DNA of 64,000 nucleotides, taken from Rhynchopus sp. YZ270_cl-10. Lineage: Eukaryota. Within the stretch, counting starts at the first letter, position 1. Each line of letters starts with the position of its first letter. The DNA is taken from assembly GCA_964035575.1 (NCBI GenBank), contig OZ037836.1, positions 992,001 through 1,056,000 of the forward strand. Reading direction: 5' to 3'. The position numbers were made by a program, and so were the translations under genes. Under the pieces are notes generated by a model, which made no database searches, was not told the origin of the DNA, and saw nothing but the letters and a program-made list of their open reading frames with translations. Shown here in pieces: positions 29,464 through 63,589 of this stretch.

Positions 29464-30228
29464 TCATTGTGCGTGTCTCTGTCGATTCTGGCTTTGCTCG
29501 GGGGATTCGTCTCTGCTTCGTTTCGGACGTGCTTCAACCACAAGCTCACTCAGATCGCCGTTCCTCACTTCGTTGGACACAACACTGCTGCAGCCGGAAA
29601 GGTAAATGCTCGTCAACGAAGTGCAGTACGCAGCAAAATACGTAACATGTGTAAAAAAATTCTTATCAATGCCCGTCACGTTGGCGAATGGTGACAAATC
29701 CAGGGTGGTTAAGCTTCTGCAGCTCCAAAGGAAGGCCTCACCAACCTGCGTCAAATTGCTCAACCCAGAGAGGTTGATACTTGTCAACGAGGTGCAGTCT
29801 GCCAGGAACCTGTCTCCAATGCGAGTCACAATGGACTCAGCACTGAGATCAAGTCTCGTCAACGAAGTGTGTGCCAAGAAGTCATTCGGAATGACAGTCG
29901 CAACCTCCGCCTGCAGAAGCAAACACGCCACCTCAGGATCCTCCACACTCTTCAACTTCTCGGCTGTGATGTCGGTCACACCCAACGCATGAAGCTCTGC
30001 AATGGCTTCTTGTTTCTGCGTTTTCGTGAGGATGATTGTGTCACCAGCACTCAGCTGCGTCATGTCCGCTCCTTCTCCCATCGCTTCGTCTCCGAAACTC
30101 ATGCAAAAGCCGTCTTCAGGTAACCCCATTGCAGTCGCCACCTTCCGCCGCAAGCCCTCCACTGTGTCATCTTCACCCACCTCGACTGTGTGCTGATTCG
30201 TGTCGAAACCCTTGATGTTCAGGTCCAT
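29464..30228 (-). CDS. Ubiquitin-like domain + BspA/TpLRR-type leucine-rich-repeat protein with basic C-terminal NLS-like tail (254 aa)
   Basis: Ubl fold MDLNIKGFD..TVEVGEDDTVEGLRRKVA..LSAGDTIIL; LRRs IGDRFLADCTSLTSINLS and VGEAFLWSCRSLTTLDLS; tail RPKRSR..RQR. ATG chosen at 30228. Confidence 0.85.
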   Translation of the reverse strand: MDLNIKGFDTNQHTVEVGEDDTVEGLRRKVATAMGLPEDGFCMSFGDEAMGEGADMTQLSAGDTIILTKTQKQEAIAELHALGVTDITAEKLKSVEDPEVACLLLQAEVATVIPNDFLAHTSLTRLDLSAESIVTRIGDRFLADCTSLTSINLSGLSNLTQVGEAFLWSCRSLTTLDLSPFANVTGIDKNFFTHVTYFAAYCTSLTSIYLSGCSSVVSNEVRNGDLSELVVEARPKRSRDESPEQSQNRQRHAQ

Positions 30229-31549
30229 GTCTTTGTTGTGGTTTTGTGTTCTGATTTCTGTGTGTGGTGGTGGGGTGGAGGACAACAAGCCTGCAGTCCT
30301 TTTCAAGAACCTTGCAAACAACAACTGTGGGAAGAAGGCCCCCTCTCCCCGACTCGAGAGCATCTGTCCCCACTGGTCGCCAGCACCTCTAACTGTGATG
30401 AGCCCCTACCCTGACACTGTACCAGAACACAGAGGATGAACCCGAAACCAGAATGTACCTGAATCAGAGTTGAAATACAAAGCCCTCTCGTGAACAGTGT
30501 ACCTTGGTACAAGGACCGGCTGTACCAGGGGTGGACACCCAACCATCCATTTCGTGGTTTACCTGGCCGCAATTGAAATATTTTTTTTTTAGCAAATATT
30601 TCAACCGACGCCATCGATTTATTTTGAAAAAAAAGTGAAAAATCAGGCCAAAATAAGGTATTTTCATATGCAATCAATAAATTGATAGTATATGGTGAGG
30701 GATCAACAAAAATGGTCCCATCTTTCTTTGTATGGCGTATGTTGTGCAAAACGTAGAAAGGTGATATCAGGTCAAATAAAGAAAAGAATAAAATCATAAC
30801 TGGAGGGGGAAATAGAGATCAAGCTCAAGCCTGAAAAAAATGCGTTAATGGTGTTCCCTGAGGGGGGCTATGTGTAAAAAGGGTCCTTCTAAGGTATACC
30901 CCAAAACCCCATAAGGCACACTGTGCAGACAAACCATTGGTTCGTCGATGTTCGTCCTGGGTCTGGGGGAGGGGGAATGGTTCCTCGAACATCAAACCAA
31001 AACGACGAACTTTTGGTTCGTCTGCACAGTATGATGGGAAGCACCAATTTAACAAAAAATTATTACTCATCCACTTGCTGTTTGGATAAAGAAAACAAAG
31101 ACGATAAGGGGGTTTGGGGGGAAGAGTTTAATTCTTGAACGCATCCCCACACATACTCGTTGCAAAAAAAGTATTTTCATCATATGCAATCAATAAATTG
31201 ATAGTATATGGTGAGGGATCAACAAAAATGGTCCCATCTTTCTTTTTATGTTGTGTGTTTTGCAAAACGTAGAAAAGAAAAGTAAAATGCTTCGTGCACA
31301 AGTTGAAACTTCAGTAGATTGGTTTCTGATATTAACCCTGTTTCAGTCCTAAGAATCATACAGTTGTATTCAAAAGGGTGGACATCTTCAGTGATTTCCC
31401 TTTAAATGGTGGGAAAAAAAAAAAAAAAAAAAATGTTTTAAGAAAGAGAAATTGGGAAAGTGAGAGAAGGGATGTGAAGAAAAAACAAGTAATTGCTATC
31501 GGAAAAAAAAAACGGGGTGTGCTGTGGAACTCCATCCTGTAGAAATAAT

Positions 31550-36716: not shown

Positions 36717-37484
36717 TCATTGTGCGTGTCTCTGTCGCTTCTGGCTTTGCTCGGGGGATTCGTCTCTGCTTCGTTTCGGACGTGCTTCAACCACAAGCTC
36801 ACTCAGCTCGCCCTTCCTCACTTCGTTGGACACAACACTGCTGCAGCCGGAAAGGTAAATGCTCGTCAACGAAGTGCAGTCCACAGCAAAATGCGTACTA
36901 CCAGTATAAGTATTCAAATCAATAGACGTCACGTTGTTGAGTGGTGATAAATCCAGGGTCCTTAAACTGTTGCAGCTCGCAAGGAAATATGTACCAACCC
37001 GCGTCACTTTGCTCAACCCAGAGAGGTCGAGACTTGTCAACGAGGTGCAGTCATATAGGAAGCCGTCTCCAATGCGAGTCACAATGGACTCAGCACTGAG
37101 ATCAAGTCTCGTCAACGAAGTGTGTGCCAAAAACCAATTCGGAATGACAGTCGCAACCTCCGCCTGCAGAAGCAAACACGCCACCTCAGGATCCTCCACA
37201 CTCTCCAACTTCTTGGCTGTGATGTCGGTCTCACCCAACGCATGAAGCTCTGCAATGGCTTCGTACTTCTGCGACTTCTTCGTGAGGATGATTGTGTCAC
37301 CAGCACTCAGCTGCGTCATGTCCGCTCCTTCTCCCATCGGTTCGCCACCGAAACTCATGCAAAAGCCGTCTTCAGGCAACCCCATTGCAGTCGCCACCTT
37401 CCGCCGCAAGCCCTCCACTGTGTCATCTTCACCCACCTCGACTGTGTGCTGATTCGTGTCGAAACCCTTGATGTTCAGGTCCAT
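36717..37484 (-). CDS. Ubiquitin-like domain + LRR protein, paralog 2 (255 aa)
   Basis: Same architecture as 29464-30228; ATG at 37484; a T-tract + AG lies ~90 nt upstream on the minus strand. Confidence 0.85.
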   Translation of the reverse strand: MDLNIKGFDTNQHTVEVGEDDTVEGLRRKVATAMGLPEDGFCMSFGGEPMGEGADMTQLSAGDTIILTKKSQKYEAIAELHALGETDITAKKLESVEDPEVACLLLQAEVATVIPNWFLAHTSLTRLDLSAESIVTRIGDGFLYDCTSLTSLDLSGLSKVTRVGTYFLASCNSLRTLDLSPLNNVTSIDLNTYTGSTHFAVDCTSLTSIYLSGCSSVVSNEVRKGELSELVVEARPKRSRDESPEQSQKRQRHAQ

Positions 37485-37987
37485 GTCTTTGTTGTGGTTT
37501 TGTGTTCTGATCTCTGTGTGTGGTGGTGGGGTGTGGAGGACAACAAGCCCTGCAGTCCTTTTCAAGAACCTTGCCAAAAAAAAAAATCACGTCATCAAGT
37601 GTTCCTTTTTTGATAGCGGACGGGGGGACGGGTTGTGCAACCAAAGTTAAAGCAAAGGGGTGGGGGTGGAGAAAGAAAATAATGCAAAATTACAGAAGGA
37701 CACCACTAAGCGGTGCACGAAAGGGAAGATGCTCTTGAGTGTGCACTAGGGAGGAGAGGGAACCTAAGACAAGGGGGTGGAGGGGGTGCGGTGGGGGGTA
37801 GGGGGGTAGGGGGGAGGAAATGATCCTGCGCGACAGGTGGGTCGCATACGCTTCACATGTCCACAAACTACGCCACATGGACGCAATGCGCAGACGTAGA
37901 GGCAAACTAACCCACCTGCCCGCCCTCGCCGATCATTCGCGAAAGGGTTCTCTTGCGTTTCCTATCTCTTTCTGGTAGTCTCATCAT

Positions 37988-40675: not shown

Positions 40676-40860
40676 CACCCAGGTGCCCAGGTACCCAGGT
40701 ACCCAGGTACCCAGGTACCCAGGTACCCAGGTACCCAGGTACCCAGGTACCCAGGTACCCAGGTACCCAGGTACCCAGGTACCCAGGTACCCAGGTACCC
40801 AGGTACCCAGGTACCCAGGTACCCAGGTACCCAGGTACCCAGGTACCCAGGTACCCAGGT
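40676..40860. repeat. (GGTACCCA)n microsatellite, ~23 copies
   Basis: 8-bp tandem repeat, read directly. Confidence 0.97.
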
Positions 40861-40889
40861 CCAGGTCCAGGAACAGGCACCCAGGAACA

Positions 40890-42145
40890 GGAAAAAAGTC
40901 GTGAAAGAGCAACCACAGCTCCACATGACAAACACAAAAGTGTCCAGTCACGTGGGGCATTCATGCACCGAGGAGATAATGATCCAACAATTTACAAGAA
41001 AGATTACTTAACCTACTGCTGGAAATTGCCAGGTCGTAGTAACACACAAAGTGTGCCTCCGTTCGGGAAGACCGGATATTCTAGAGACCAAAAAGGCCTC
41101 AAGAATATCTTCCGGTAGTCAAGGTATAACCGAGTGAACGGCCCAAGACCCCCGTGGAGAAGTTAAATGTTGTAATGCTATCAGGTAGAAACTGCGAACA
41201 CTGTCTTACCCTCCTCAATGCATGGTGGAAGATGTCTTACACAACCAATATCCTGTACCCAGGTACCCATATTCCCAGACCCACGCAGTACCACGTCGCA
41301 GTACTACGCAAAATTTACCACCAGACCCTGTCTTCGTGCACCTGAAGTACAACGCCGCAGACAGGCCAAACATGCGTTGGACTCAGAGGAATGCCCGCTG
41401 TGCAGGTATCAATGAGAACCAACTCCCAGCAACAAGGGGCGCCTTTTGGCGGGCGTTGTTGAGGGTGTTTGGGGTGCAAAGTTTTCCACAATTTTGATGC
41501 GCGGGTACAGAAGTGTTGTCTTGTTCTTTCATCTCTAGGAATGTAAATGTCAATCGCGTTTAACTACCACGAGGGCTTGTTTAGTGAACCCACGAGGGGT
41601 CGAAGGGGGTTGGTTATCCCATATCTATCAAAGGTTGTGTCGACCAGGCGAATCCACTATGTTACGCTGTATGATGATAAATCCGAAGAAATAACAGTGC
41701 ATAGCAACTGCAGGAAGTTTGTTAAAAAGAGTGCCTCACGCTACACAAACCACCACCCGCGATTGACTTAGATGTTATAACAAAGAGAATTCAGAACAAA
41801 ACAACACCCTGCCCCATACACACTAAATTGTCATGCTTCAAGAACATGCCTGGGCCAAAATTACTATGACGAAAAGGCAACAAGACCACCCACAAGGAGT
41901 GTGAATTGTGCACTGGTTTTCTGGGGGAACGCAATATTTTCTTGTGTCTAGTCCTCTGCAAGCAGAGGACAGACTTTCCGGAAAGTTTCCAAAGGTCGAA
42001 TTTCTTGCACTAGCTATGCTCCCTGGGTTAAATGGCAATAGCAGTGACTGACTTCTGAGAGAAATAGGGTACTTAAAACCCAATTTTCATTGTTTTGGTG
42101 TAATCCTGTTGAGGGATGGTGGGGAGGTGTGGGTGTGGGTGGGTG
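40890..42145 (+). pseudogene. Core repeat containing a decayed Ulp1/C48 cysteine-protease-like reading frame
   Basis: LVIPYLSKVVSTRRIHYVTLYDDKSEEITVHS (His/Asp region) and, in another frame, RQQDHPQGV*..CAL (Gln/Cys region; paralog at ~58770-58810 reads RQQDHPQGVLNCALS); inverted copy at 49790-51090. Confidence 0.45.
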
Positions 42146-46241: not shown

Positions 46242-47230
46242 TTTTTGATGTGTTTGAGTCTGAGAAAAGGAAATGGGGAGACAGACACAAAAGCAAAAAA
46301 GGGAAGGCTCGTTTTTCCATTTATTGTTACAGTAACAATTGTTACTTTGTAACAATAAATGAAAAAACGAGCCTTCCCAAAGAGGCAAAAAAAATCACTT
46401 TCCCATCCCGCCGGGGTATACGCAACCGTACTGTATTCCGCAAACCCGTAAACCCTTGCGGGTTTACGGGTTTGCGGAATACATTATTGTTCTTTTTTTT
46501 ACTGGTATCCTTTTGTTGCTTTCTTGTTCTTTCTTTTATCCCCCAAAAACCATCATATCTCTTACCGATCGCCCTGGTTTGGACCAACAAAAAAAAAAAA
46601 AACCCCCCCCAAAGAAAATGAGTTTTAATGAAGTTTTCGCTTAAAATCCATTAAAACCCCCTTGACCGGCAGTCGGGGCTCGTGTTGTCATGCTAGTCTG
46701 TTCCCCCCCCACACCAAAAAAATGATGTGCAAAAATCATGTGTTTTGACCATGTCCGGGTACACCAAATACACACATCTCTGAACAAGCCTATACCCAGT
46801 AGTAGGCAACAAGGCCATTTTTTGACCAAAAAATAATTTCCCCCTCCCAAAAAAATTGGGCGTGGTAGGTCATAAAATGGCCCAAAAAATCCAAAGAAAA
46901 CCTCAGATTGACCAAACAAGGAAAAAAATTTTCAAGTCAAATTTTCAGTCAAAATACGGCTATTTTGGTTATAGCATGTGTACTGTAGTGACTATACAAG
47001 GCGATTTTCGGCCAAAAAAATTTTTTTGGCCGAAAAAAAAAATTTTTTTTTCGGCCCAAAAAAAATTTTTTTTTTTTTTTTTTTTTTTTTTGCATTTTTT
47101 TTGCATTTTTTTTTTTTTTTTTTTTTTTTTGCATTTTTGGATTTTTTTTCATGCTTTTTCTGTAACCTCTCTCTCTTTTACGGCAGGTGACCGGTTGAGG
47201 CGATACTTCCGGACTGAGGAAGGGCATTCT

Positions 47231-49177
47231 TTTACTTTTTTATTTGCCTGGAGGGGGTACGGGGCGGCCTCTTGTAAGTTTGTTTTTGTTTGTAGTCTTT
47301 TGTTGGTTTAGGGGCGTGGCTGACGACACGATGAACCTCCTTGGTTCAAAGCTGTTAACGACGTCTAGCCAGGCCTGGCTGTACACTCTAGTCTATAAAA
47401 GGGGGAGGGGGGGGGAAACGAAAAAGGAAAAGTAGAAAAATGGTGACTCTAGTGTCTATGTGGCGTTTCGACGACGCGTCTGCACAAGGCTCCGCAGGCG
47501 ATTGTACAGCTCCGCCGACTTCTTCAGCTCCCACTGGTTCAACATCGGCTTCACTGCATTCCTCCACCGCCCACAGTACTCGAAAGCCTCCGCTGCCGTC
47601 AGTCCGTACCCACCTTGGGAGCTGAAATGAGTGGTATTGGGATAGAACAGTCCCTCCCACTCTTCGGCCGTCTCTGGAGTAGGCAAGTCAAACCCGGGGC
47701 AGGGCGCTATGTCATTCCATACCGGCACAGAGTTCGGGAGGGCTGGTGGTGCGGATTGGGAGCCACTCTCCGATGTTGTGTCTGTGCTGGGGACCGATGA
47801 TGCGCCTGGCAAAGGAACTGCGGGTTGGGACCTGTCGAGGAGGTCCGCGGAGTACGCACTGCCTTGCGAGGCGTCGTGTGGCTGTTCACTCGTGTCAGCG
47901 CGGGAGTGAGCTGCCTCAGAGGACGTGAATACGGGGGGGGCTGGGGTGGTGTTTGAATAGCCACTCCCCGTATGTGTCCTGGTGGGCTGCACCTGCGATG
48001 AAGCGGTTGGCGGAACAGCGTGGGGCTGCACTCTCGTGTTGGAGGTTGAGGGAGCTGCTGCAACAGGCGCGGGTACGGGGAGGGCTGAGTGGGTGTTGGA
48101 ATAGCCACTCTCCGTATGTGCCTGATGCTGCTGAGACGCGGCCGATCCAGCAAGCGACTGCGACGAGGTGCCAGGTTGGACAGGGGTCTGCTCTACGTGG
48201 GGCGCACACGAAGTAGGGAGGGCTGGTGCTGTGTTAGAGTAGCCACTCTCTGCTTCGGACTTCGCAAGGTTACGGAGCCGGCCGCCAAGCATCGAAGCCC
48301 ACTGCTGGTCCCCCCCACTCAAACTCGGCTTCATTGCCTCCCACCAACGAGTGAAGCACACTAGAGCGTTAGCAGCTGACATAGACGCGCCCTCGGGATC
48401 GGCGTGAGTGGCAACGGGGTAGAACAAAACCCGCCACTCCTCTGGGGTCGCTGGGATCGGCCTGTTGTACCCAGGGCAGGGCGCCAAGTCGTTCCAGAAA
48501 ATCACATTGCTCGGGCACGGGAGGGCTGAATTGGTGTTGGAGTAGCCACTCGCCGTAGGTGTCTGATGTTGCTGAGGCTCGTCTGAAGCAGAGGGCGCTT
48601 GCGAGGTGTTAGGCTGGGGAACAGCGTGCGCGACGTGGGGCACCGAGGGCGCGGAGGCGGCAGGGAGGGCTGATTGTGTGGTAGAGTAGCCGCTCTCCTG
48701 TCCCTTGACGTCCGATGGTGCCTGTCTCATGGTGTCGTGTAGCTGTGCCCTCCTCATCTTCGCAGCCTCCGTGCTCTTAGCCACCCGGACTTGTTTCTGA
48801 TCCTTCACCAGGCTGTTGCTCTTGGGGTCCGTCGTCACCGTGCGCTCCGTCTTCTTCACAGAGCGCGGGTTGCTGGCGACCGGTAGGGCACGAGGGCAAG
48901 TTGAACCTAGGGGAAGACACGACAGGCACGCCCACCCCACGCACTCCCGACACTGCCAGTGGCGTTCACTGCCAAGAACAGCAGCCAAGCACAACTCGCA
49001 TCGCCCGAAATCCGCCCTCGTTTCGTCCTGAGGATAGTCCAGCAGAGCCTCGCGAGACACACATGTGAGCGACGGCAGGCGCGGGTTCGGCTCTTGCATC
49101 AGGAGGTACTGCGTCAGCTTCTCGGGGATGGTGACCGGTGTGAAGTGGCCCGCTACGTGACCGTCGTGGGCCAGCGT
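47231..49177 (-). mobile_element. 5'-truncated non-LTR retroelement copy (OTU C-terminal end, zinc finger, ESGYSNT repeats); ORF 47456-49177
   Basis: Divergent paralog of 60700-62254 including the 3' UTR ending CCAGGCAAATAAAAAA; starts at LAHDGHVAGHFTPV. Confidence 0.75.
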
Positions 49178-49610: not shown

Positions 49611-51396
49611 CACAGGGTTATAGTCAGATCTATACACTCATTGTATATACAATTGTCAATTGTACATACAATTGTATAGAAATTGTATAGATCTGACTAT
49701 TTGATGTACAATCCCAACTTTTTTTATAGTCAGATCTATACAATTTATGTACAATCCCAGTACACAGGTTTGGCCAGGTTTCTGGCTATTGCCTCCCACC
49801 TACCCACACACACACCCACCCCTACAGGACTATACACAAAAAAATGGAAATTGGGTTTCGCACACCCGATTCTTCTCAGAAGTCAGTCACTGCTATTGCC
49901 ATTTAACCCAGGGAGCATAGCTAGTGCAAGAAATTCGACCGGAAACCTTCCGGAAAGTCTGTCCTCTGCTTGCAGAGGACTAGACACAAGAAAATATTGC
50001 GTTCCCCCAGAAAACCAGCGCACATTTCACACTCCTTGTGGGTGGTCTTGTTGCCTTTTCGTCATAGTAATTTTGGCCCAGGCATGCTCTTAAAGCATGA
50101 CAATTTAGTGTGTATGGGGCAGGGTGTTGTTTTGTTCTGAATTCTCTTTGTTATAACATCTAAGTCAATCGCGGGTGGTGGTTTGTGTAGCGTGAGGCAC
50201 TCTTTTTAGCAAACTTCCTGCGGCTGCTAAAGTGTTATTTCTTCGGATTTAACAACGTACAGCGTAACATAGTGGTTTAGCCTGGTCGACACAACCTTTG
50301 ATAGATACGGGATAACCAACCCCCTTCGACCCCTTGTGGGTTCACTGAACAAGCCCTAGTGGTAGTTAAACGCGATTGACATTTACATTCCTAGAGATGA
50401 AAGAACAAGACAACACTTCTGTACCCGCGCATCAAAATTGTGGAAAACTTTGCACCCCAAACACCCTCAACAACGCCCGCCAAAAGGCGCCCCTTGTTAC
50501 TGGGAGTTGGTTCTCATTGATACCTGCACAGCGGGCATTCCTCTGAGTCCAACGCATGTTTGGCCTGTCTGCGGCGTTGTACTTCAGGTACACGAAGACG
50601 GGGTCTGGTGGTAAATTTTGCGTAGTGTCGCATTCCCTCATGTGTGGGTCACTCACACTTGCGGTCATGTGCCACTGCGTGGGTTTGGGAATTTGGGTAC
50701 CTGGGTACAGGATATTTGTTGTGAAAGACATCTTCCACCATGCATTGAGGAGGGTAAGACAGTGCTCGCATTTTACTTGAAATCATTACAACATTTAACT
50801 TCTCCACGGGGGTCTTGGGCCGTTCACTCGGTTATACCTTGACTAGCGGCAGAGGCCTTTTAGGACTCTATAACTCCGATATTCCCGAACGGAGGCACAC
50901 TTTGTGTGTTACTACGACCTGGCAATTTCCAGCAGTAGGTTAAGTAATGTTTTCTTGTGAATTGGTGGATCATTATCTCCTCAGTGCATGAATGCCCCAC
51001 GCGACGGACACTTTTGTGTTTGTCAAGTGGACTGTCTGGTCACTTTTCAGTGACTGGCGGGTTGGCTGTGGTTGCTCTTTCACGACTTTTATCCTTGTAT
51101 CCAGTGTACCGTGTACCTGGGTACCTGGGTACCTGGGTACCTGGGTATGGCGTGTACAATCTCCCTCGAGTGTACAATCCAAAAATTGTATAGATCTGAC
51201 TTTTGTATAGTCAAATCTATACAATTTGTGTACGACCTAGTGTATACTGGGATTGTACATAAATTGTATAGATCTGACTATAAAAAAAGTTGGGATTGTA
51301 CATCAAATAGTCAGATCTATACAATTTCTATACAATTGTATGTACAATTGACAATTGTATATACAATGAGTGTATAGATCTGACTATAACCCTGTG
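49611..51396. mobile_element. 1.79-kb non-autonomous element with ~155-bp near-perfect TIRs
   Basis: TA|CACAGGGTTATAGTCAGATCTATAC ... GTATAGATCTGACTATAACCCTGTG|TA; interior is the core repeat plus (GGGTACCT)n. Confidence 0.85.
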
Positions 51397-51593: not shown

Positions 51594-52610
51594 TTTCAAG
51601 AAAAAAAAATTTTTTTTTTCGACATCACAAAATTTTTCCCACAGAAAAAAATTTTTTTTTTTTGCACATGTCTGCACCAAAAATGCAAATAAAGCCAGAA
51701 TTTTGATGTTTTGAGCATCTAGAATTTATTCCACGGCTATTTTGTGTATAAAATACATAGATGGAACGCCCATATGGGCAGCTGCTAATATGGGCACCCC
51801 AAAAAACAGGATATGGGCAATATGGGCGCCCATATTGCCCATATGGGCGGATATGGGCAAAAAAGGCGCCCATATCCGCCCATATCCCGCCCATATTTTA
51901 CATATTTTAATGCGCCCATATCGGGAAAAAGCGCCCATATTTTGGATATGGGCGCCCATATCCAAAATATGGGCGCCCATTTTTTTTTTTTTTTTTTTTA
52001 CACAAGTGTTTTTGAGGCCTGCTCACTACACCCTATGTACCCTTCTGGGACCAAAAAGTCAAAAAAAGCAAGAATTGGGCTGTTTTGAGCATCTAGAGTT
52101 TATTCCCCGGCCATTTTCTGCACCACCAGTGCATTTTGTATGGGCCAGCGCCTTGTCGAAAAATCGAAAAATCTCAAAAAAAAAAAAATCCCAAATTTTT
52201 TTTCACAAGTGTTTTTGAGGCCTGCTCACTACACCTATGTACCCTTCTGGGACCAAAAAGTCAAAAAAAGCAAGAATTGGGCTGTTTTGAGCATCTAGAG
52301 TTTATTCCCCGGCCATTTTCTGCACCACCAGTGCATTTTGTATGGGCCAGCGCCTTGTCAAAAAATCAAAAAATCTCAAAAAAAAATTTTTTTTTGTCGG
52401 GAAAATTTCGACCCCTGAGTTGGGGTTTTGGGCACCAAAAAGTGCAAAAAAACGCAAAAATCGGATGTTTTGACGATCTGGGGGTAAACCATATGCACTA
52501 TTACAGTTTCCTGGTGGTCCGGGTTTTGAGTCTTTTATAGTGTTTTATTTTTTCTTTTTTCCGAGAGACCAAAAAATAGGGAGGGGATGGCAAAAATCTT
52601 GTGCTTTATT

Positions 52611-53010
52611 CGAATAACGAATTGAGAGAACACAACTTTTAGCTTTATTTGCTTTTACTTTTACTTTTACTTTACTCATATCAACAAGAGGATACCAACA
52701 AAAAGAAAACATCAAGAGAACACACCGACCAGCATATCAGCTGGTCACGGGAACCTTTAAAAGGTTTCCACTTTTGTTGTCAGGCCAGTGTCCTAAACGA
52801 TGCTGCCACACCCTGAGGGGGAGGTGTGCTGTCTGTAAACCCTGTGTGGCAACAACGGGGAGGTGACCTCCGTATATCGGCAACCCGCACGTCCTAGATG
52901 TGAAAAACGGCACCAGCCGGGACACAGCCCCGGGTTTACTCTGGATAGAACAAAAAAGAGCGGCCACACTGCCTCGGCAGCGCTAAAGAGACGAGAGTGA
53001 ATACCAAGGG

Positions 53011-53048
<38 letters not shown>
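52611..53048 (-). mobile_element. Short non-coding insertion, possible SINE-like retroposon
   Basis: Present in the left palindrome arm and absent from the right arm (58050-58075); A38 run at one end and (GTAAAA)4 on the minus strand at the other. Confidence 0.4.
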
Positions 53049-53050
<2 letters not shown>

Positions 53051-53129
53051 GGAACGGGCTAGACGAATGTGGTGTAAGATGTGTAAGTGTAAGAGGTGTA
53101 AATTGCAACGTGTAAGATGTGTAAACAAC

Positions 53130-55430
53130 TTACCAATCAAACTCGTCGTTTTTTGCTGTGCTGTACCCCCCAAACGCCACGTCATCTTCACTCACCCGCA
53201 ATTTCCCTTGCACGTCGCCATTTATCAGGAGCTGGGTGCGCATACAAAAATTTCCAACAGTGGTGCGTGCACGTTTTTTGTTGCACGAGAGCTTGTACGA
53301 CGTCGAAAATCCACGACTCAACAAGTGTCACGCAAGGTGATATGTCCAAGACGCAGAACACAAATTTTTTCAGCACCTCGTACGAATCGTCCAGCATTTT
53401 CCAGAGATCCCGAACAGGATATCCCTGAGTGATGACATTGGGGTCATCAAGCCAGCGGAGCAGGGCACTCTCGACCTCGTCAGTGAACCAGGGCCCCAAC
53501 AAAAACACTGGGACCGAACCCCGCCTTCAAGAGCGCCACAGCACTTTGACCAGTTAACTTCAAAAGGCCTGGAACAAGGAGACTTCCGGCGGAAAATTGG
53601 GGGAAATTGGGGGGAAATTTGGGGGAAATTTTTGTGCTTGCGAAAAAAATTTCCAAGTTCGGTTCCGAGTTCCTTTGCCCCAGTATGCTCCATTGAGCTC
53701 AGTTCTGTGGTCATCTTCTCGAACGAAGTATGCAGGGTGAGGATAGGGGGCACTGTGCCGGACGGATCCGCCACACCGTCCATGAGCTTTGAGGGGACAT
53801 CCATGACCTCGGAGCACGCCACCACTTGCTCCCACAGAGACACAGTGTCCGTGTCATGCAGCAACTGCACGAGTGCGCGGATGCTCTTGCAGACAGATGC
53901 TCCATACTTCTGTCTCTCTTCTGCGCAGAAGGCCATAATAGCCAATCTACGCTCGGACACATGCCTCAAGAGTTTGGTGAGGGAGTTCCAGCGTGTGCCC
54001 TTGGAGTCCACCATAGACTTCGCCTTGGGCTCTGCAGTTTCTGTTTGGTGTAAGTCACCCAACAGTTTCTCCGTCTCCTCCAGAGTACCGGGGGTTATCG
54101 AAGGGTAGGTCACAAAAAATTTTGCAAGCATAGTTGACAAAGTATCAGGCAGGACAAAACTTGAAGCACCAAGGATGTTCTGAAACTCCTGGTAAGCCTT
54201 CTCGTGTGGCCCGTTTGCAGATGGCGCAGCCAAATTCTGTGCTTTTTGCGCGCTGATGTACCTCGACGCCCTAGTTGGGGCGTTAAAAAATGCTTTCCGC
54301 AGCAACACCACCAACTCCCACACCGCTGGATAGTGTTTTTTTACAAAATTTTTCATGATATTGTGTATCCCGTGACCCACACACAAGAAGATCAAGAGTT
54401 CTGTTGCTGCTTCAGAGGCTCCCTGAGATAGAAAAAAGAAAAGTATAAATAATAAATAATAAATAAATAAAAGAACCGAAAAGACACAAAACCACACCTT
54501 AATATTGTACGTCGCGCTGTCCATCACTACATGCCTCATGTTGGGGTACTTCTCTGTGACGTGTTTGAGTATTATTTTGATGACTTCAAAGTCTGTCGTC
54601 TCTCCGGCTGCTATCATGTAGTTGTCGAACCACAACTCAGAGGGCAGTGCCCTCATCCCTATCACATGGTGTTTTGCCATGAGGCCGCCGTCCAATCCGA
54701 ATCCTGTGGAAGCACGCAGCTGTGGTGCCAAGAAGTCGAGGTGTCCTGAAAAATTGAGGTAAGCTTCTTGCCCACTCTTCGAAGGCGGGGAACTCGGCGT
54801 CATACGTGACCCTGACGAAGCTGGCCATCATTGCTGCTTCACCGTCTGTGATGCCGGAATAGAGGCAGGCTCGCGCAAACAGAGCGTTCCTCTCATTTTT
54901 CGTCGACGGTGCAGTAGTACGGTTGGTTTTTTTGGCCTTCGTGTGGGGGTTCTGGTGCTGTAGGGACTTGGTATGCTGCTTGAGCGCGGTGTAGTTGTGC
55001 GGCTGTCACACCTGGTTGCACCTCGTGTCGAAGATCAGCTTCTCATTTTGATCTTCGCCGGCCGCGATGAACATGTCTCGGTCTTTTTCTGGGAGATCGG
55101 ACACAGTTTTTATGGTGTATCCCAACTGCTCCAGCTCGAGGCGATTATCGCGAAACACCTCTGAGGCTGAGCTGCTGCCTTTGCGCGACCGCTTTTTGGG
55201 GGTGTCGTCTTTCTTTTTTGGAGTGAGCTTTTCCTCCTGTTTTTTTTCCTGCTCCTCCTTCACCTTCGAGGCCAGCGAGTCGGCGGTCTTCTTGGTGCCG
55301 ACTTTCAGCTTTTTTGTTGGGGGCTCCTTGTTTTCGCAAGAGTCTTCGTCGACATCTTTACCTTTTGCAGCCTGGGTCGGTTGTTGTTGTTCTGATTTGT
55401 CTGCCGACTTCCTCTTGCTTGTTTTTGCTT
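53130..55430 (-). pseudogene. Inverted, frameshifted copy of the hAT transposase lacking the start codon
   Basis: Reverse complement of 55620-57896 with indels near 54970-54930, 54780-54745, 53620, 53495, 53317 and 53150; intron 54423-54497. Confidence 0.9.
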
Positions 55431-55601
55431 TTGGTTATCGATAAATGTGTTATGTCTGTTGGTAGGGCGGGTTTTTGAAATTTAGTGAGTTGTCCCCAGA
55501 TACTCCCTGTTTGGTTTTCGAGTGCTTTTTGTACTTCACACTACCTACTAATTTCAAAAACCCGCCCTACTAACAGACATAACACATTTGTCATTCTCAC
55601 C

Positions 55602-57896
55602 ATGCCAAAACCAAGAGGAAAAACAAGCAAGAGGAAGTCGGCAGACAAATCAGAACAACAACAACCGACCCAGGCTGCAAAAGGTAAAGATGTCGACGAA
55701 GACTCTTGCGAAAACAAGGAGCCCCCAACAAAAAAGCTGAAAGTCGGCACCAAGAAGACCGCCGACTCGCTGGCCTCGAAGGTGAAGGAGGAGCAGGAAA
55801 AAAAACAGGAGGAAAAGCTCACTCCAAAAAAGAAAGACGACACCCCCAAAAAGCGGTCGCGCAAAGGCAGCAGCTCAGCCTCAGAGGTGTTTCGCGATAA
55901 TCGCCTCGAGCTGGAGCAGTTGGGATACACCATAAAAACTGTGTCCGATCTCCCAGAAAAAGACCGAGACATGTTCATCGCGGCCGGCGAAGATCAAAAT
56001 GAGAAGCTGATCTTCGACACGAGGTGCAACCAGGTGCGACAGCCGCACAACTACACCGCGCTCAAGCAGCATGCCACTACCCTACAGCACCAGAACCCCC
56101 ACACGAAGGCCAAAACCAACCGTACTACTGCACCCTCGACGAAAAATGAGAGGAACGCTCTGTTTGCGCGAGCCTGCCTCTATTCCGGCATCACAGACGG
56201 TGAAGCAGCAATGATGGCCAGCTTCGTCAGGGTCGCGTATGACGCCGAGTTCCCCGCCTTCGAAAGAGTGAGCAAGAAGCTTCCTGTTATTTTTCAGGAC
56301 GACCTCGACTTCTTGGCACCACAGCTGCGTGCTTCCACAGGATTCGGATTGGACGGCGGCCTCATGGCAAAACACCATGTGATAGGGATGAGGGCACTGC
56401 CCTCTGAGTTGTGGTTCGACAACTACATGATAGCAGCCGGAGAGACGACAGACTTTGAAGTCATCAAAATAATACTCAAACACGTCACAGAGAAGTACCC
56501 CAACATGAGGCATGTAGTGATGGACAGCGCGACGTACAATATTAAGGTGTGGTTTTGTGTCTTTTCGGTTCTTTTATTTTTATTTTTCCTTTTCTTTTTT
56601 CTATCTCAGGGAGCCTCTGAAGCAGCAACAGAACTCTTGATCTTCTTGTGTGTGGGTCACGGGATACACAATATCATGAAAAATTTTGTAAAAAAACACT
56701 ATCCAGCGGTGTGGGAGTTGGTGGTGTTGCTGCGGAAAGCATTTTTTAACGCCCCAACTAGGGCGTCGAGGTACATCAGCGCGCAAAAAGCACAGAATTT
56801 GGCTGCGCCATCTGCAAACGGGCCACACGAGAAGGCTTACCAGGAGTTTCAGAACATCCTTGGTGCTTCAAGTTTTGTCCTGCCTGATACTTTGTCAACT
56901 ATGCTTGCAAAATTTTTTGTGACCTACCCTTCGATAACCCCCGGTACTCTGGAGGAGACGGAGAAACTGTTGGGTGACTTACACCAAACAGAAACTGCAG
57001 AGCCCAAGGCGAAGTCTATGGTGGACTCCAAGGGCACACGCTGGAACTCCCTCACCAAACTCTTGAGGCATGTGTCCGAGCGTAGATTGGCTATTATGGC
57101 CTTCTGCGCAGAAGAGAGACAGAAGTATGGAGCATCTGTCTGCAAGAGCATCCGCGCACTCGTGCAGTTGCTGCATGACACGGACACTGTGTCTCTGTGG
57201 GAGCAAGTGGTGGCGTGCTCCGAGGTCATGGATGTCCCCTCAAAGCTCATGGACGGTGTGGCGGATCCGTCCGGCACAGTGCCCCCTATCCTCACCCTGC
57301 ATACTTCGTTCGAGAAGATGACCACAGAACTGAGCTCAATGGAGCTTACTGGGGCAAAGGAACTCGGAACCGAACTTGGAAATTTTTTTCGCAAGCACAA
57401 AAATTTCCCCCAATTTTCCGCCGGAAGTCTCCTTGTTCCAGGCCTTTTGAAGTTAACTGGTCAAAGTGCTGTGGCGCCCTTGAAGGCGGGGTTCGGTCCC
57501 AGTGTTTTTGTTGGAGGTGCAGGTGCCTGGTTCACTGACGAGGTCGAGAGTGCCCTGCTCCGCTGGCTTGATGACCCCACTGTCATCACTCAGGGATATC
57601 CTGTTCGGGATCTCTGGAAAATGCTGGACGATTCGTACGAGGTGCTGAAAAAATTTGTGTTCTGCGTCTTGGACATATCACCTTGCGTGACACTTGTTGA
57701 TCGTGGATTTTCGACGTCGTACAAGCTCTCGTGCAACAAAAAACGTGCACGCACCACTGTTGGAAATTTTTGTATGCGCACCCAGCTCCTGATAAATGGC
57801 GACGTGCAAGGGAAATTGCGGGTGAGTGAAGATGACGTGGCGTTTGGGGGGTACAGCACAGGCGAGGAGACAGAGGACGACGATTTTAATTGGTAA
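55602..57896 (+). CDS. hAT-superfamily transposase with one 63-nt intron (56547-56609)
   Basis: FGLDGG (D1), VVMDSATYN (D2), CVGHGIHN (CxxH), GTRWNS, and VDRGFS at the ERxFS position; degenerate N-terminal Zn-finger-like DTRC..H..H; GT..polypyrimidine..CAG intron. Confidence 0.8.
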   Translation: MPKPRGKTSKRKSADKSEQQQPTQAAKGKDVDEDSCENKEPPTKKLKVGTKKTADSLASKVKEEQEKKQEEKLTPKKKDDTPKKRSRKGSSSASEVFRDNRLELEQLGYTIKTVSDLPEKDRDMFIAAGEDQNEKLIFDTRCNQVRQPHNYTALKQHATTLQHQNPHTKAKTNRTTAPSTKNERNALFARACLYSGITDGEAAMMASFVRVAYDAEFPAFERVSKKLPVIFQDDLDFLAPQLRASTGFGLDGGLMAKHHVIGMRALPSELWFDNYMIAAGETTDFEVIKIILKHVTEKYPNMRHVVMDSATYNIKVWFCVFSVLLFLFFLFFFLSQGASEAATELLIFLCVGHGIHNIMKNFVKKHYPAVWELVVLLRKAFFNAPTRASRYISAQKAQNLAAPSANGPHEKAYQEFQNILGASSFVLPDTLSTMLAKFFVTYPSITPGTLEETEKLLGDLHQTETAEPKAKSMVDSKGTRWNSLTKLLRHVSERRLAIMAFCAEERQKYGASVCKSIRALVQLLHDTDTVSLWEQVVACSEVMDVPSKLMDGVADPSGTVPPILTLHTSFEKMTTELSSMELTGAKELGTELGNFFRKHKNFPQFSAGSLLVPGLLKLTGQSAVAPLKAGFGPSVFVGGAGAWFTDEVESALLRWLDDPTVITQGYPVRDLWKMLDDSYEVLKKFVFCVLDISPCVTLVDRGFSTSYKLSCNKKRARTTVGNFCMRTQLLINGDVQGKLRVSEDDVAFGGYSTGEETEDDDFNW

Positions 57897-59666
57897 GTTG
57901 TTTACACATCTTACACGTTGCAACGTCTTCCACGTTGCAATTTACACCTCTTACACGTTACACGTCTTACACGTTACACCTCTTCCACGTTACACCTACA
58001 CGTTACACGTCTTACACGTTACACGTCGTACACATTCGTCTAGCCCGTTGCACTTTTTTTTTATCGATTGATTAATAAAGCACAAGATTTTTGCCATCCC
58101 CTCCCTATTTTTTGGTCTCTCGGAAGCAAGGAACCCCACAATAAATAAAACACCCCCCCTTAAAAAATAGAGCGTAGTGTGCATCCTCGGGTGTCTACAC
58201 TACACTACGATTTCTAAAGCTACAACACCTCTACTTTTTTTGAAATGAGGGCAGTCTCTTAACTGCAATCTCCAAAACCCCTTCTTAGCATGTAGCCGTG
58301 TATGGTGTATAGTACCTTGATGCGGACTACCCCTTTTAAGGCTATTTTCTTCCTAAAAGTTGCTCTGAAGGGTTGAGGACGCAGGGACGTCTTCCGCAGT
58401 ACAAAGGCTTCGGCCAACATTGAGTACAGACCTGAATTCTCCCACCTGGTGGGTTTACTCGGCGAATGTCGACACAACAAAAAAAAGTTCAAAGGACTTT
58501 GTTGGTCGCCTTACTCATTTGGATCACAACGGTATGTATATGCTACTCATTACAATGTTAGCCACTTCTATTGCCAGACACCGGGGCAAATAGTAAGTGC
58601 AAGAAAACTGCTTTTTGGAAACCAGGAAAACATGGTGGACACTCCACTCCACGTGCGGGCATGTTTGGCACTTCTGCATGCGTGCAGTATCCAAATGTGT
58701 CCCCGTGGGACCAAAGTGATAAAGATGTGTCCACTGTGTACAGGGAAAAAACTTTGCGCTCCCCCGGACAGTGCACAATTCAACACCCCTTGTGGGTGGT
58801 CTTGTTGCCTTTTGGAACAACAACAATTTTTTTTCACGTTGTTGTATTTTGGCCAGGCATGCTCTTGAAAGCATGACAATTTGATTGCGTATGGACAAAG
58901 CAAAGAACCAAGTATGAATTCTGAGTTGAAGTCTGAGAGATGTTGTGGGAAGGGGAGTTCGCTCCTTTCAACGATGACCTCGTTGTTCTTCATAGGCTTG
59001 TCTTAACCGACCACATAAATAAAATTGTGCCGGCCTCGAAGGAATTCTAAGCACACCCGCGTGGCAGCTAAACACGACTCTCTCTCAATTCAACAAAGAA
59101 GGAATACTTGGTAATTTGTGGAGCACCCGTGCATGAAAATTGTAAAACTTTGCGCCCCACGTTGCCCCAGAACACGGCTTCCTTAGAACCGGTTCTGGCC
59201 CAACGTGGACTGCCTGCTCACCCTTTCCCGGGTGGCTGGCGGTTTTTGGCATAATTTTCGGGCTCCGGCCCCAGCCCCCATTATTAAGATTGGGCGCCCA
59301 TATTGAAATATGGGCGCCCATATCCGAAATATGGGCCACCTTAAAAAATATGGGCCCGTAGCCCATATTTGAAAATGTGCCCACATCCGCCCATATGTGC
59401 CCATATCCGCCCAAATTTACGCCCATATGCCCATATGGGCATATGGGCACATTTTTTTCGCCCATATTGCCCATATTTTTTGGTGCCCATATGGGCGTTC
59501 CATCTATGAAAATACCCACCCTGTACAGTTTGTATGGGCCAGCGCCTTGTCAAAAAAAATCGAAAAATCTCAAAAAAAAAAAAAAAAATTTTTTTTTTCA
59601 CAAGTGTTTTTGAGGCCTGCTCACTACACCCTAGGCACCCTTCTGGGACCAAAAAGTCAAAAAAAG

Positions 59667-62254
59667 ACTGTGTGGTTGCGAACCCCCTGGCCTCTTCGCA
59701 TGTACAGGGGGCGGCGCGAGCGGTGGGGCACGCAGCGGTCAAGCATCAGTCCTGGAAGCGCGATAAACATGGCAAAGCTTGCAGGACAGCACGCATTTCC
59801 TTCTCCGCTTTTGCGGCCGAGGTCTTTGGGGGGCTGGGGCCGGAAGCAGCCACGCTGTGGCGGCACCTGAACAAGATGGCCGCGGAGCGTGCGGACGGGG
59901 ACAAGGTCTTGGCCTCGGCCAAATGGAATGAGCGTCTGGCCGTGTGTGTACAGCGGGAGGTGGGTGCCACGCTGTTGAAGCGGGGGGCCTTGTGTTTCGG
60001 CCTTGGGGGTGATCGTGATGCAGTGCCGCCTGCTCCTGTCGAACGTACCCCAGACTACTACGTCACACCTGACGACGCCCCAGACGATCGCTTCCCTACA
60101 TACGTGGACGACCACCTGTACCGGCTCGCTGAGCAAGACTGTGAGATTGTTGAGGAACCAACCCCTGATCCACGAAGTGCGGCTGATGTTGATGAGGCTA
60201 CTGCGGCGATGGAGAGGTGGTTACAGCGGCAGGCGCGCAAGAACCCTGTTCATCAGTCTTCCGTCGTCGTGGAAGTAGCTCCCTGCGAGGACCCAGCTGC
60301 GGCCTATGAGAAGCTGCATGAGGGTGACTCCCCTCCTGCCCTAGCGGTGCAGCTGTCCGCCGTCGGATGCTCCACTCCCGCGAACTTCCGCTACACCGTG
60401 GGTGACTGCTGTTTCGACGCTATGGCACACTTGAGCGGGAAGAACGCGGGGTCCCTGAGGCAGGTTGCGGTTGCACAGGTAGTCCAAGACGCGGACCTGG
60501 CGGCACGGGCGGAACCGAATGTCGCCGTGTGGTCGCGGCGGATGCTCATCGCTGGGTGTGATCGATCGGATACCTGGGCTGACACTGTGACCGTTGCCGG
60601 CCTTGCACGCGCTCTGAACTCGCTGGTGGTGGTGTTTGTGGGTGGTCATAAGCCTTCGCTCTTCACCCCCTCGAGTGCGACGAATTACCAGAATGTGTTT
60701 GCGCTGGCTCACGACGGCCGCACGGTGGGCCACTTCACGCCGGTCACCATTCCGGAGAAACTGAGGCAGTACTTCCTGATGCAGCCTCCGACGCCGCGCC
60801 TGCCGTCGCTCACTTGTGTGTCCCGCGTGGCAATGCTGGACTACCCTCAGGACGGAACGAGAGAGGATTTCGGGAAATGTGAGGTGTGCGGGTCTGCTGT
60901 CCTCGGCAGTGAGCAGCACTGGCAGTGCGGGGAGTGCGTGGCTTGGGCGTGCCGGCAGTGTCGTCCCCTCAGCTGCTCTTCCTGCCCACGGGCTCCAGCG
61001 GTTGTCAGCTTACCGAGTTCCTCAGGTGTCACCGCGCGCACACATCCAGCAGCGGACCCCAAGAGTAATGACTTGTTGCAGGAGCAGCGGGATAAACGCG
61101 TGGCCACGAGTGGGGCTACTATCAAGAAGAACAGGGACCAGCTTCGTGCCCGGTTGCGTAAGGCTCCGACGGATGCCATGGATGTAGAGAGTGGCTATTC
61201 AAACACCACCCCAGCCCTCTCTACCTCCTCCGCGCCCCAGGTCGTGCAGACCCCTGTCCAACCTGGCACTTCGTCGCAGGCGCACTCTGCATCGGACGAG
61301 TCTCAGCAGCATCAGACAAATACGGAGAGTGGCTATTACAACACCCACGCAGCCCTCCCCGTACCCGCGTCTGATGTGGCTGTTCCCTCATCCACCAGCA
61401 CGAGAGAGCAGCCTCACGCTGTTCCGCAGGTCGCTACGTCGCAGGCGCAGCCATCAAGGACCCATACGGAGAGTGGCTATTCAAACACCACCCCAGCCCT
61501 CCCCGTATACACGTCCTCTGAGGCAGCTCACTCTCACGCTGACACGAGTGAGCAGCCACACGTCGCCTCGCAAGACAGTGCGTACTCCGCGGACCTCCTG
61601 GGCGGGTCCCAGCACGCAGTTCCCTTGCCTGGCGCAACCTCGGTCCCCAGCACAGACACACCATCGGAGAGTGGCTACCAATCCGCACCACCAGCCCTCC
61701 CGAACCCTGTGCCGGTATGGAATGACATAGCGCCCTGCCCCGGGTTTGACTTGCCTATTCCAGAGACCGCGGATGAGTGGGAGGGGTTGTTCTATCCCAC
61801 TACCACTCATTTCAGCTCCCAAGGCGGGGACTCTATGACGGCGGCGGAGGCTTTCGAGTACTGTGGGCGGTGGAGGACTGCAGTGAGGCCGATGTTGAGT
61901 CAGGAGGAGCTGAGGAAGGCGTCGGCGCTGTGCAATCGCCTGAGGAGTCTTGTGCAGACGCGCCTTCGATCCGCCGCATAGACTTTAGAGACTTCTTTTT
62001 ACTTTTTCTCCCCTCTCCCCCCCCTTCTCCCCTTTCTTCTTCTTTTTTGGCTATTTTTATTTCGTTCACATAGCCTAGATTCGGACCTGTTTTCAGGCCG
62101 ACCGTGTACAGCCGGGTAGAGCTTGACAACGCCAACAGCTGTGGTCCAAGGAGGTCCCCAGTGTTGTCTGCCAATCCCCTTAACCCAACAAAAGACTACA
62201 ATATAAAAACAATCTAGACAAAGCCGCCCCCATCCCCGTCCAGGCAAAATAAAA
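59667..62254 (+). mobile_element. 5'-truncated CRE/SLACS-like non-LTR retrotransposon; ORF to 61981 with RLE C-terminus, OTU-like protease, Cys-rich finger and repeats
   Basis: RLE-like AA..K..K..C..FSAFAAEVFGGLGPEA..W.ERLAVCVQR; OTU-like GDCCFDA..LR..WAD..GHF; 3' poly(A). Inserted in the repeat GTCAAAAAAAG^CA(A/T)GAATTGGGC (empty copies at ~52060 and ~52260) with AAAAAAAG duplicated. Confidence 0.75.
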
Positions 62255-63589
62255 AAAAAAAGCATGAATTGGGCTGTTTTGAGCATCTAGAGTTTATTCC
62301 CCAGCCATTTTCTGTACCGCCAGTGCACTTTGTATGGGCCAGCGCCTTGTCAAAAAATCGAAAAATCTCAAAAAAAAAAATTTTTTTTTCGGGAAAATTT
62401 CGACCACTGAGGTGGGTCTTTGGGCACCAAAAAATGCAAAAAAAATGCAAAAATCGGGTGTTTTGACCATCTGTGGTTACACAAAACACACTTCTGTGTA
62501 CAAGCCTACACCAATACAGTGGTAATACAAGGCGATTTTTGACCAAAAAAAAAATATTTTTTTTCGCCCAAAATCGGGCGTGGTACGTCATAAAATGGCC
62601 CAAAATATCCAAGGAAAACCTTAGATTGGGCAAATTATGAAAAAAATTTTCAAGTCAAATTTTCAACCAAAATACGGTCATTTTGTTCACACAGTGATTC
62701 TACGTCATGCTAGCTTCCTGTGCAGAACTCCAGCAATTCACCAATGCCGGCATCTATCTTTCCATTATCGCCATTGCACTTCGTGTGTTACCAACGTGCT
62801 CAAGAAATGGCGTGCTGTCACACTCCAACCAGAGTATCGAACCCGTACGTACATAACGGAGATCCACGAGCCCACCCAAAGGCGGAGGGTCTAGCCGAAG
62901 GCGGACGAGCTAGCCCAATCCGGACGAGCGAGCCTCATAAAGCACACCAGCTCCAATCTGACGGGGAACTTCGAGCCTCCAAGCCCAGAGAAAGAACCTG
63001 GCCACCGGAGGGCCCTAACGGCCCGACGAGGAGGCGCCCCATAGGGCGCTGGGGCCAAGGGACTTAAGTCGCCCTAACGCTTCGCTAAGTACCTGGAAAA
63101 ATCCCTAAGGAAAAAAGTGGAAAAAAAGTGTCTCAAAATTGACATCTATTTTTTGACCTTTTTGCTGGGTAGGTTTGGGTCGGTCCGACCTGACCCTACT
63201 GAGTCGGTTTAAGTCGGATTGGTAGCCTTGTCCCCTATCATCTCCCCTCTTCCCCCTTTTAATACAAGGGCAGTCTCGTGACTATGTAACCTACAAAACC
63301 ACCATTTAAGCACCTCAGTATCATACCCCATCTAAGCACCCTCAACCCTCATCCACACAGATTCGCCTCCTTAAACCTGCAAACCTGCAAACCTGCAAAC
63401 CTTCTAACACCTCAGAGGGCAAGGCCCGCAAACCCTTATTCCAATGGAAGAATTTTTCAAAAATTCTCTATACTTCCTATGACTGGACCCAACTCCCCTC
63501 ACTATTTTTCCCTAAAAAAACGCAAAAAACGCCCAAAAAATTCTGCCAAAAATATCAAAAATATCAAAAATGCGCATTTTTGCCGTGCC

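Follow-up and report, generated by a model that had tools for sequence, protein, structure and literature searches.

A CRE-like retrotransposon family with predicted OTU proteases on both sides of its reverse transcriptase and endonuclease

A truncated insertion in the genome of Rhynchopus sp. YZ270_cl-10 belongs to a recently amplified family of retrotransposons which carry OTU domains on both sides of the reverse transcriptase (RT) and the restriction-like endonuclease (RLE), an architecture of which we are nearly certain. With more reserve, the reading we favour is that of a CRE-like RLE element whose front OTU likely cleaves the polyprotein at a site imitating the tail of ubiquitin, and whose rear OTU is likely a deubiquitinase protecting the element's own protein. 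The insertion lies in a window of 64,000 nt (contig OZ037836.1 of assembly GCA_964035575.1, positions 992,001 to 1,056,000), analysed here together with related proteins from public sequences. Transposons repeatedly carry proteases of the ubiquitin and SUMO type (Ulp1, Josephin, OTU), the published roles of which are only conjectured.

The truncated copy and its surroundings

The copy occupies 59667-62254 on the forward strand and retains the 3' UTR and the final 771 codons of an ORF of 1934 aa. It is bounded by matching 8-bp target site duplications (TSD) at 59659-59666 and 62255-62262 (+), composed of seven A and one G, and the last 2 nt of the 5' duplication are also microhomology with the element. 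The 3' UTR (269 nt) and a short A tail extend over 61982-62254 (+). The initial annotation had read a 3' UTR, a poly(A) tract and a TSD at this end; all are present, the poly(A) amounting to only 11 A, seven of which belong to the TSD. The combination of 5' truncation, an intact 3' end with an A tail and an 8-bp TSD is as in RLE-type (R2-group) non-LTR retrotransposons, and TSDs are reported for the CRE clade in PMC3636483.

The insertion point is an A-run within an AT-rich high-copy repeat, uninserted copies of which, with a 202-bp unit, are found at 51993-52386 (+). An empty-site form, which skips 2596 bp and shares 8 letters (joint 59658-62255), is present in contigs of all four runs, from four studies, and also within the window at 52040-52085 and 52243-52290; since the flank is a high-copy repeat, the runs may show paralogous sites instead of the empty allele. 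In run X1, a contig extends 398 nt upstream of 59665 as untruncated element, and contigs of the untruncated form match the window from 59665 on. Insertion would proceed by target-primed reverse transcription at A-runs, in which the T-rich strand would be nicked first, reverse transcription would be primed on the A tail, and a second nick, staggered by 8 bp, would generate the TSD.

A single open frame (59666-61981, 771 aa, P0001) runs through all the parts which the initial annotation had strung together, from the RLE piece to the end module. Of the RLE, annotated at about 59670-59990, only the C-terminal half is there (59666-59995 (+), residues 1164-1273 of the full-length protein P0044): the copy begins with Asp1164 (P0044 numbering), the second of the acidic catalytic residues, and includes neither the CCHC finger nor the catalytic Asp that comes first. 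Without an RT and half of the nuclease, the window copy is immobile by itself. An acidic Pro-rich linker (59996-60358 (+), 58-64% identical in sister families) leads to the C-terminal, or rear, OTU (60359-60766 (+); Cys248 at 60407, Trp304/Asp306, His356 at 60731). It is followed by an 8-Cys cross-brace finger at 60815-60985 (+), with the pattern Cys384-x20-CxxC-x12-CxxC-x4-CxxC-x7-Cys440; the CxxC-rich finger noticed earlier is thus real, but it begins further upstream than had been claimed, with Cys384 at 60815, and ends with Cys440 at 60985. A basic linker (61001-61186 (+)), a Ser/Pro/Gln-rich region (61187-61699 (+)) with four 33-nt repeat cores at 61187, 61325, 61469 and 61667, and a three-helix end module (61712-61981 (+)), loosely kept across the clade and duplicated in a sister family, complete the protein.

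The spacing of the finger presumably fits the C1 consensus, with Cys in place of His; fold matches to the C1 type are weak (Z 3.5-4.9), and FYVE and ZZ score weakly too. The model of the end module (pLDDT 71) had no Foldseek match under E 1 (best Z 5.4), an absence which carries no weight on the novelty of its fold, and the end-module profile reaches distant families at E 0.06-0.24 at best.

A copy of a sister family at 47225-49176 (-) is truncated further, starting at the OTU end, carries a duplicated end module and is 71-80% identical to the window copy. In this sister family (47459-48560, -; P0027) the repeat block is duplicated along with the end module, and its last block resembles the window family (77-79%) more than the family of P0005, which hints at a swap of 3' ends between families.

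Elsewhere in the window, two near-identical head-to-head copies at 55602-57896 (+) and 53370-55434 (-) contain a 764-aa frame, which reads through an apparent GT-AG intron in frame; it had no Pfam match, and it resembles a hAT-type transposase. A 406-bp satellite (12979-24159, 27.5 copies, 100% matches) and perfect minisatellites with units of 9 bp and 5 bp, directly adjoining each other at 11390-12174, are also present. Genes with ubiquitin-like and leucine-rich-repeat domains (Pfam on the first) are duplicated at 29464-30405 and 36717-37586 (-), with 93% DNA identity, and a 1.4-kb inverted dispersed repeat (40804-42145 and 49797-51147, 88% identical) lies beside 21-bp and 8-bp tandem repeats.

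The full-length element and its clade

Searches with residues 1-445 of P0001 returned three longer proteins, all with an RT, and one near-length cluster of 17 members, with P0044 (1934 aa) among the 15 listed. P0001 equals residues 1164-1934 of P0044 letter for letter. The order of domains in P0044 is a front OTU (92-218, Pfam OTU E 0.004), C2H2 and C4 zinc fingers, the RT (610-809, Pfam RVT_1 E 1.7e-14), CCHC and RLE (1086-1273), a second, rear OTU (1395-1530), the C1-like finger, the repeats and the helical end module. The upstream RT which the initial annotation had expected of full-length copies is therefore found, and its extension of about 650 aa behind the RLE corresponds to 661 aa. The CCHC reads Cys1087-x2-Cys1090-x9-His1100-x3-Cys1104, and the RLE motif Arg1113-His-Asp1115, Glu1135, Lys1145..Asp1148 and Asp1164, three spacers being off by one residue from the SLACS/CRE consensus as given in PMC12857005.

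An RT followed by CCHC and a PD-(D/E)xK-like RLE in one ORF makes P0044 an RLE-type (R2-group) element, which departs from the typical layout of that group in that the RLE is not the last domain. As a tendency the terminal position of the RLE holds, with 85 of 117 relatives ending at most 60 aa past it. The rule that retroelement proteases precede the RT is kept by the front OTU, which the earlier reading had missed, and the rear OTU is an addition to it. Solved R2 and L1 RTs match at no better than E 1e-7 to 1e-8, and a SLACS-labelled relative (32% identity) occurs in the RT-RLE match set, though not as sister to the OTU clade. The label CRE-like is fair by the RLE motif and the labelled neighbours, but it does not extend to spliced-leader specificity.

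The points at which cluster members join the reference on the 5' side are many and varied, and the members mostly share its C-terminus. Copies that are nearly identical, along with full-length ORFs that are intact, suggest that the family was active recently. Foreign leads of six residues or more precede 18 cluster members (both window copies included), 13 of which have a Lys in the last four residues before the junction, and the leads of P0013, P0019, P0020, P0042 and P0046 all match one flanking repeat family, at offsets that vary. Such leads would fit an insertion at A-runs within AT-rich repeats, weakly so because AT-rich flanks translate Lys-rich anyway. A spliced-leader target was considered and is unsupported, as copies join one flanking repeat family at varied offsets and other repeats too; across 51600-63000, none of 14 Rfam matches reached the gathering score, in a database which may lack the leader RNA of this host.

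An RT-RLE search yielded 141 proteins, 120 of them listed; the analysis covered 121 proteins, made up of 117 new ones among the matches listed and four stand-ins. The RLE was detectable in 117 of the 121. A rear OTU is present in 13 of the proteins analysed, a front OTU in 12, both in 8 and either in 17. The five rear-only proteins begin at or just before the RT and are probably 5'-incomplete, while of the four front-only ones two stop before the RLE, one is a near-copy of P0056 with another tail and one is P0057. In the RT tree the 17 OTU-bearing relatives all fall on a single branch (SH-like 98; 112 rows, nine proteins with a split or short RT being left out), and in a 41-row RT-RLE tree 14 of the 17 group together (SH-aLRT 99). 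The window's own assembly is the probable source of most long-contig families; P0004, P0049 and P0050 are on short contigs. Across three sister families, identity is 86% in the RLE, 78% in the RT, 77-78% in the front OTU, 69-74% in the rear OTU and 34-64% in the linkers.

Front and rear OTU profiles align with each other at 95% probability, and a single branch (SH-aLRT 99) separates the 12 front domains from the 16 rear ones. As the two sets split at one branch, both domains likely date from the ancestor of the clade. A recent duplication of the front OTU into the rear one was rejected, the two sets being separate in the tree.

The same data bear on whether the tail could be a fragment of a host gene, acquired through 3' transduction and retained as a neutral passenger. 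Long low-complexity tails do occur in unrelated RLE elements, with more than 150 aa behind the RLE in 29 of 117, and dN/dS between the two window copies rises to 0.5-0.6 over the repeats and the end module, with 0.37 in the basic linker. It falls below 0.3, however, over the OTU end with its linker (0.29, 53 codons) and over the finger (0.25, 42 codons), all of these being point estimates from few codons; moreover, the tail is in frame with the RLE in 13 families, in a clade whose RTs are 40-80% identical, and the rear OTUs group apart from the front ones. A passenger origin is thus already largely refuted, and we give it hardly any credence. The RLE appears able to bear a large folded C-terminal cargo, which is relevant to the engineering of R2-like gene writers.

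Other protease domains were met nearby. Behind the RLE of P0062, from a 35-member cluster, lie a USP and two RNase H1 N-terminal domains, and this element branches as the sister of the OTU clade (99). On a distant branch, a USP follows the RLE in P0133 (labelled barnacle) and in P0134, which has N-terminal PHD fingers as well, and P0140, of the same RT-RLE match set, has an Ulp1 protease domain ahead of the RT. Some of the USP-tailed proteins may be gene-model fusions. One origin for the OTU clade and all USP tails was rejected (AU test p 1e-6, for a group named post hoc from the tree), and separate gains of USP tails point to a recurring conflict between hosts and retroelements based on ubiquitin.

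Predicted activities of the two OTU domains

Pfam called neither OTU nor RLE on the window protein and its parts, phmmer with the rear OTU alone against PDB sequences gave nothing useful, and a four-row rear-OTU profile had no PDB match below E 0.5. An 11-row profile returned weak matches to OTUs alone (best E 0.02), and an Atlas search, to be taken as a lead only, returned OTU clusters at 0.90-0.91. The four-member family profile recovered homologous rear domains in related families, and the rear domain of P0053 (1924-2006) exceeds the Pfam OTU cut-off (28.9 bits). A search of 1.84 billion protein representatives matched 31 proteins, family members first; among 26 new proteins scanned from it, Pfam found an OTU in eight and a C1/ZZ/FYVE-type finger in five. 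The predicted model of the rear OTU (pLDDT 85, 12-row alignment) matched OTUD3 in the PDB by Foldseek (E 7.3e-6, TM 0.78 by target), and the 33 matches at E <=0.001 include OTUD3, OTUD5, Otu2 and nairovirus OTUs, every listed row being an OTU. By VIA, the alignment with OTUD3 has Z 16.1 and rmsd 3.1 Å over 135 aligned residues, and ranks 1-31 are OTU-type. The rear domain is accordingly predicted to have an OTU fold, and the OTU-like Cys...His domain and the RLE proposed initially are both upheld by fold, profile and motif evidence.

Cys248 and His356 align with the catalytic pair of Pfam-positive OTU domains. Three residues ahead of the catalytic Cys, where OTUs usually carry Asp, the window domain has Val. 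The third residue of the OTU triad, stated as Asp or Asn in PMC7464072, falls at His+2, which here is Thr358; in the 11 intact rear domains this position is Asp in two, Glu in three, Thr in four and Ser in two. Given the Thr at His+2 and the Val in the Cys loop, the window rear OTU may be weak or dead.

These departures from the canonical triad and Cys loop would suit a rear OTU which is a pseudo-enzyme, or a ubiquitin-binding tether to ubiquitinated chromatin or partners, with catalysis left to the front OTU only. Cys and His are lost in 5 of the 16 rear domains (read by eye), including the sole rear OTU of P0048 and of P0049, and these domains are still in frame and alignable; in each of the three elements that have a pair of rear OTUs, the first one is dead. 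The 593-aa tail of P0057 has no OTU at all, and together with the five losses this indicates that the rear OTU is dispensable. Against a pseudo-enzyme, the pair is retained in the remaining 11 rear domains, across deep branches, as in 12/12 front domains, and the second OTU of each two-rear-OTU element is intact. We regard a non-catalytic rear OTU as unlikely and keep to a deubiquitinase.

The front OTU, which in P0047 exceeds the Pfam cut-off (30.1 bits), is preceded in 11 of 12 proteins by Leu/Met-x-Gly-Gly, 31-38 residues ahead of the catalytic Cys, P0113 having a front OTU without the site. The first residue is Leu in eight and Met in three (one Met being the predicted start residue), and the middle residue is freely variable. 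In background windows of 25 residues, the Leu form occurs in 17 of 974 and a form with any hydrophobic residue in 56 of 974; the 12 front domains are related and stand for about 7-8 lineages rather than 12 independent events. A conserved Gly-Gly site was looked for ahead of the rear OTU, and a clear one ahead of the Ulp1 domain of P0140, and none was found in either place. The site falls outside the window copy. The Gly-Gly region has a second copy in P0052, some 55 residues ahead of the first (Trp-Thr-Gly-Gly at 378), which resembles the site of P0054.

With its fixed distance from the front OTU, the motif is a precise candidate substrate, which likely mimics the ubiquitin tail and serves for self-cleavage. 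Coronavirus PLpro is described as cutting at Leu-x-Gly-Gly sequences which imitate the tail of ubiquitin (PMC7464072), and the OTU protease of TYMV as combining polyprotein processing with stabilisation of the polymerase by deubiquitination (PMC5967125). The likeness of the motif to the tail cut by PLpro, together with the dual role in TYMV, leads us to infer a division of labour, somewhat better supported than not, in which the front OTU would process and the rear OTU would deubiquitinate. The front OTU would cut after Gly-Gly, freeing a defined N-terminus; the rear OTU would strip ubiquitin off the RT protein, or off host proteins present where the element inserts, and would shield the element protein from ubiquitin-based destruction by the host, with the C1-like finger and the end module acting as binding parts. 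A precedent for such restriction is L1 ORF1p, which according to PMC5570191 is restricted through polyubiquitylation. A more far-reaching version, which we hold tentatively and rate a little short of even, is that of a virus-style self-processing polyprotein, in which the front OTU would free the mature RT-endonuclease, the rear OTU would be a counter-defence deubiquitinase, and the repeated capture of OTU and USP domains downstream of the RLE would mark host restriction based on ubiquitin.

The rear OTU might instead be an active deubiquitinase that acts at the nick on host chromatin or on DNA-repair proteins, aiding integration rather than protecting the element. It adjoins the endonuclease and the cross-brace finger, and PMC2836005 proposes the same role for the OTU and Ulp1 domains of Ginger transposases; but the finger is nearer to C1 types than to a PHD reader, by weak matches, and the substrate is purely hypothetical. 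This seems to us quite improbable, slightly more so than a pseudo-enzyme, and protection of the element's own protein is the role we retain for the rear OTU.

Comparison with known systems

A literature search found no OTU-bearing RLE retrotransposon, although Repbase may already describe such a family, and Diplonema elements are characterised in PMC10161547 as not rigorously curated. What is new with respect to described CRE-type elements is the double-OTU architecture and the predicted self-cleavage site; deubiquitinase domains in transposons have precedent.

In the CRE clade (CRE1/2, SLACS, CZAR, MoTeR, FoTeR), as in the OTU element, a single ORF encodes zinc fingers at the N-terminus together with RT, CCHC and RLE; the TSD and the A tail are shared too, and the RLE spacing of the OTU element deviates from the published consensus by at most one residue (anatomy of CRE and R2 as outlined in PMC12278014, PMC3636483 and PMC13580325). 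The CRE clade differs in lacking the 661-aa extension and the two OTUs, and its targets are spliced-leader genes or telomeres, whereas the OTU element targets A-runs in repeats. NeSL and Utopia-1_TSP (Ulp1) and Dualen (Josephin) are likewise RLE retroelements with a cysteine protease of the ubiquitin/SUMO type, as presented in PMC4640811 and PMC8557442. NeSL and Utopia-1_TSP are described with a single N-terminal Ulp1 and the RLE at the C-terminus (PMC4640811), while here the proteases are of the OTU class, one on each side of RT and RLE, with a candidate cleavage site.

Ginger1 transposases, with a C-terminal OTU or Ulp1, and the OTU-bearing Helentrons also fuse an OTU to a transposition enzyme (PMC2836005, PMC6431247), but they are DNA transposons without RT and RLE. 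The Penelope-like element Chlamys-1_cBra has a C-terminal extension with a weak Josephin-like motif and a Cys/His motif, according to PMC8557442, and differs in retroelement class, endonuclease and protease family. Models for the proposed working are TYMV PRO and coronavirus PLpro, which couple a cut at a ubiquitin-tail mimic with deubiquitination of the polymerase; in these RNA viruses one domain does both jobs, whereas in the OTU element two domains are predicted to share them.
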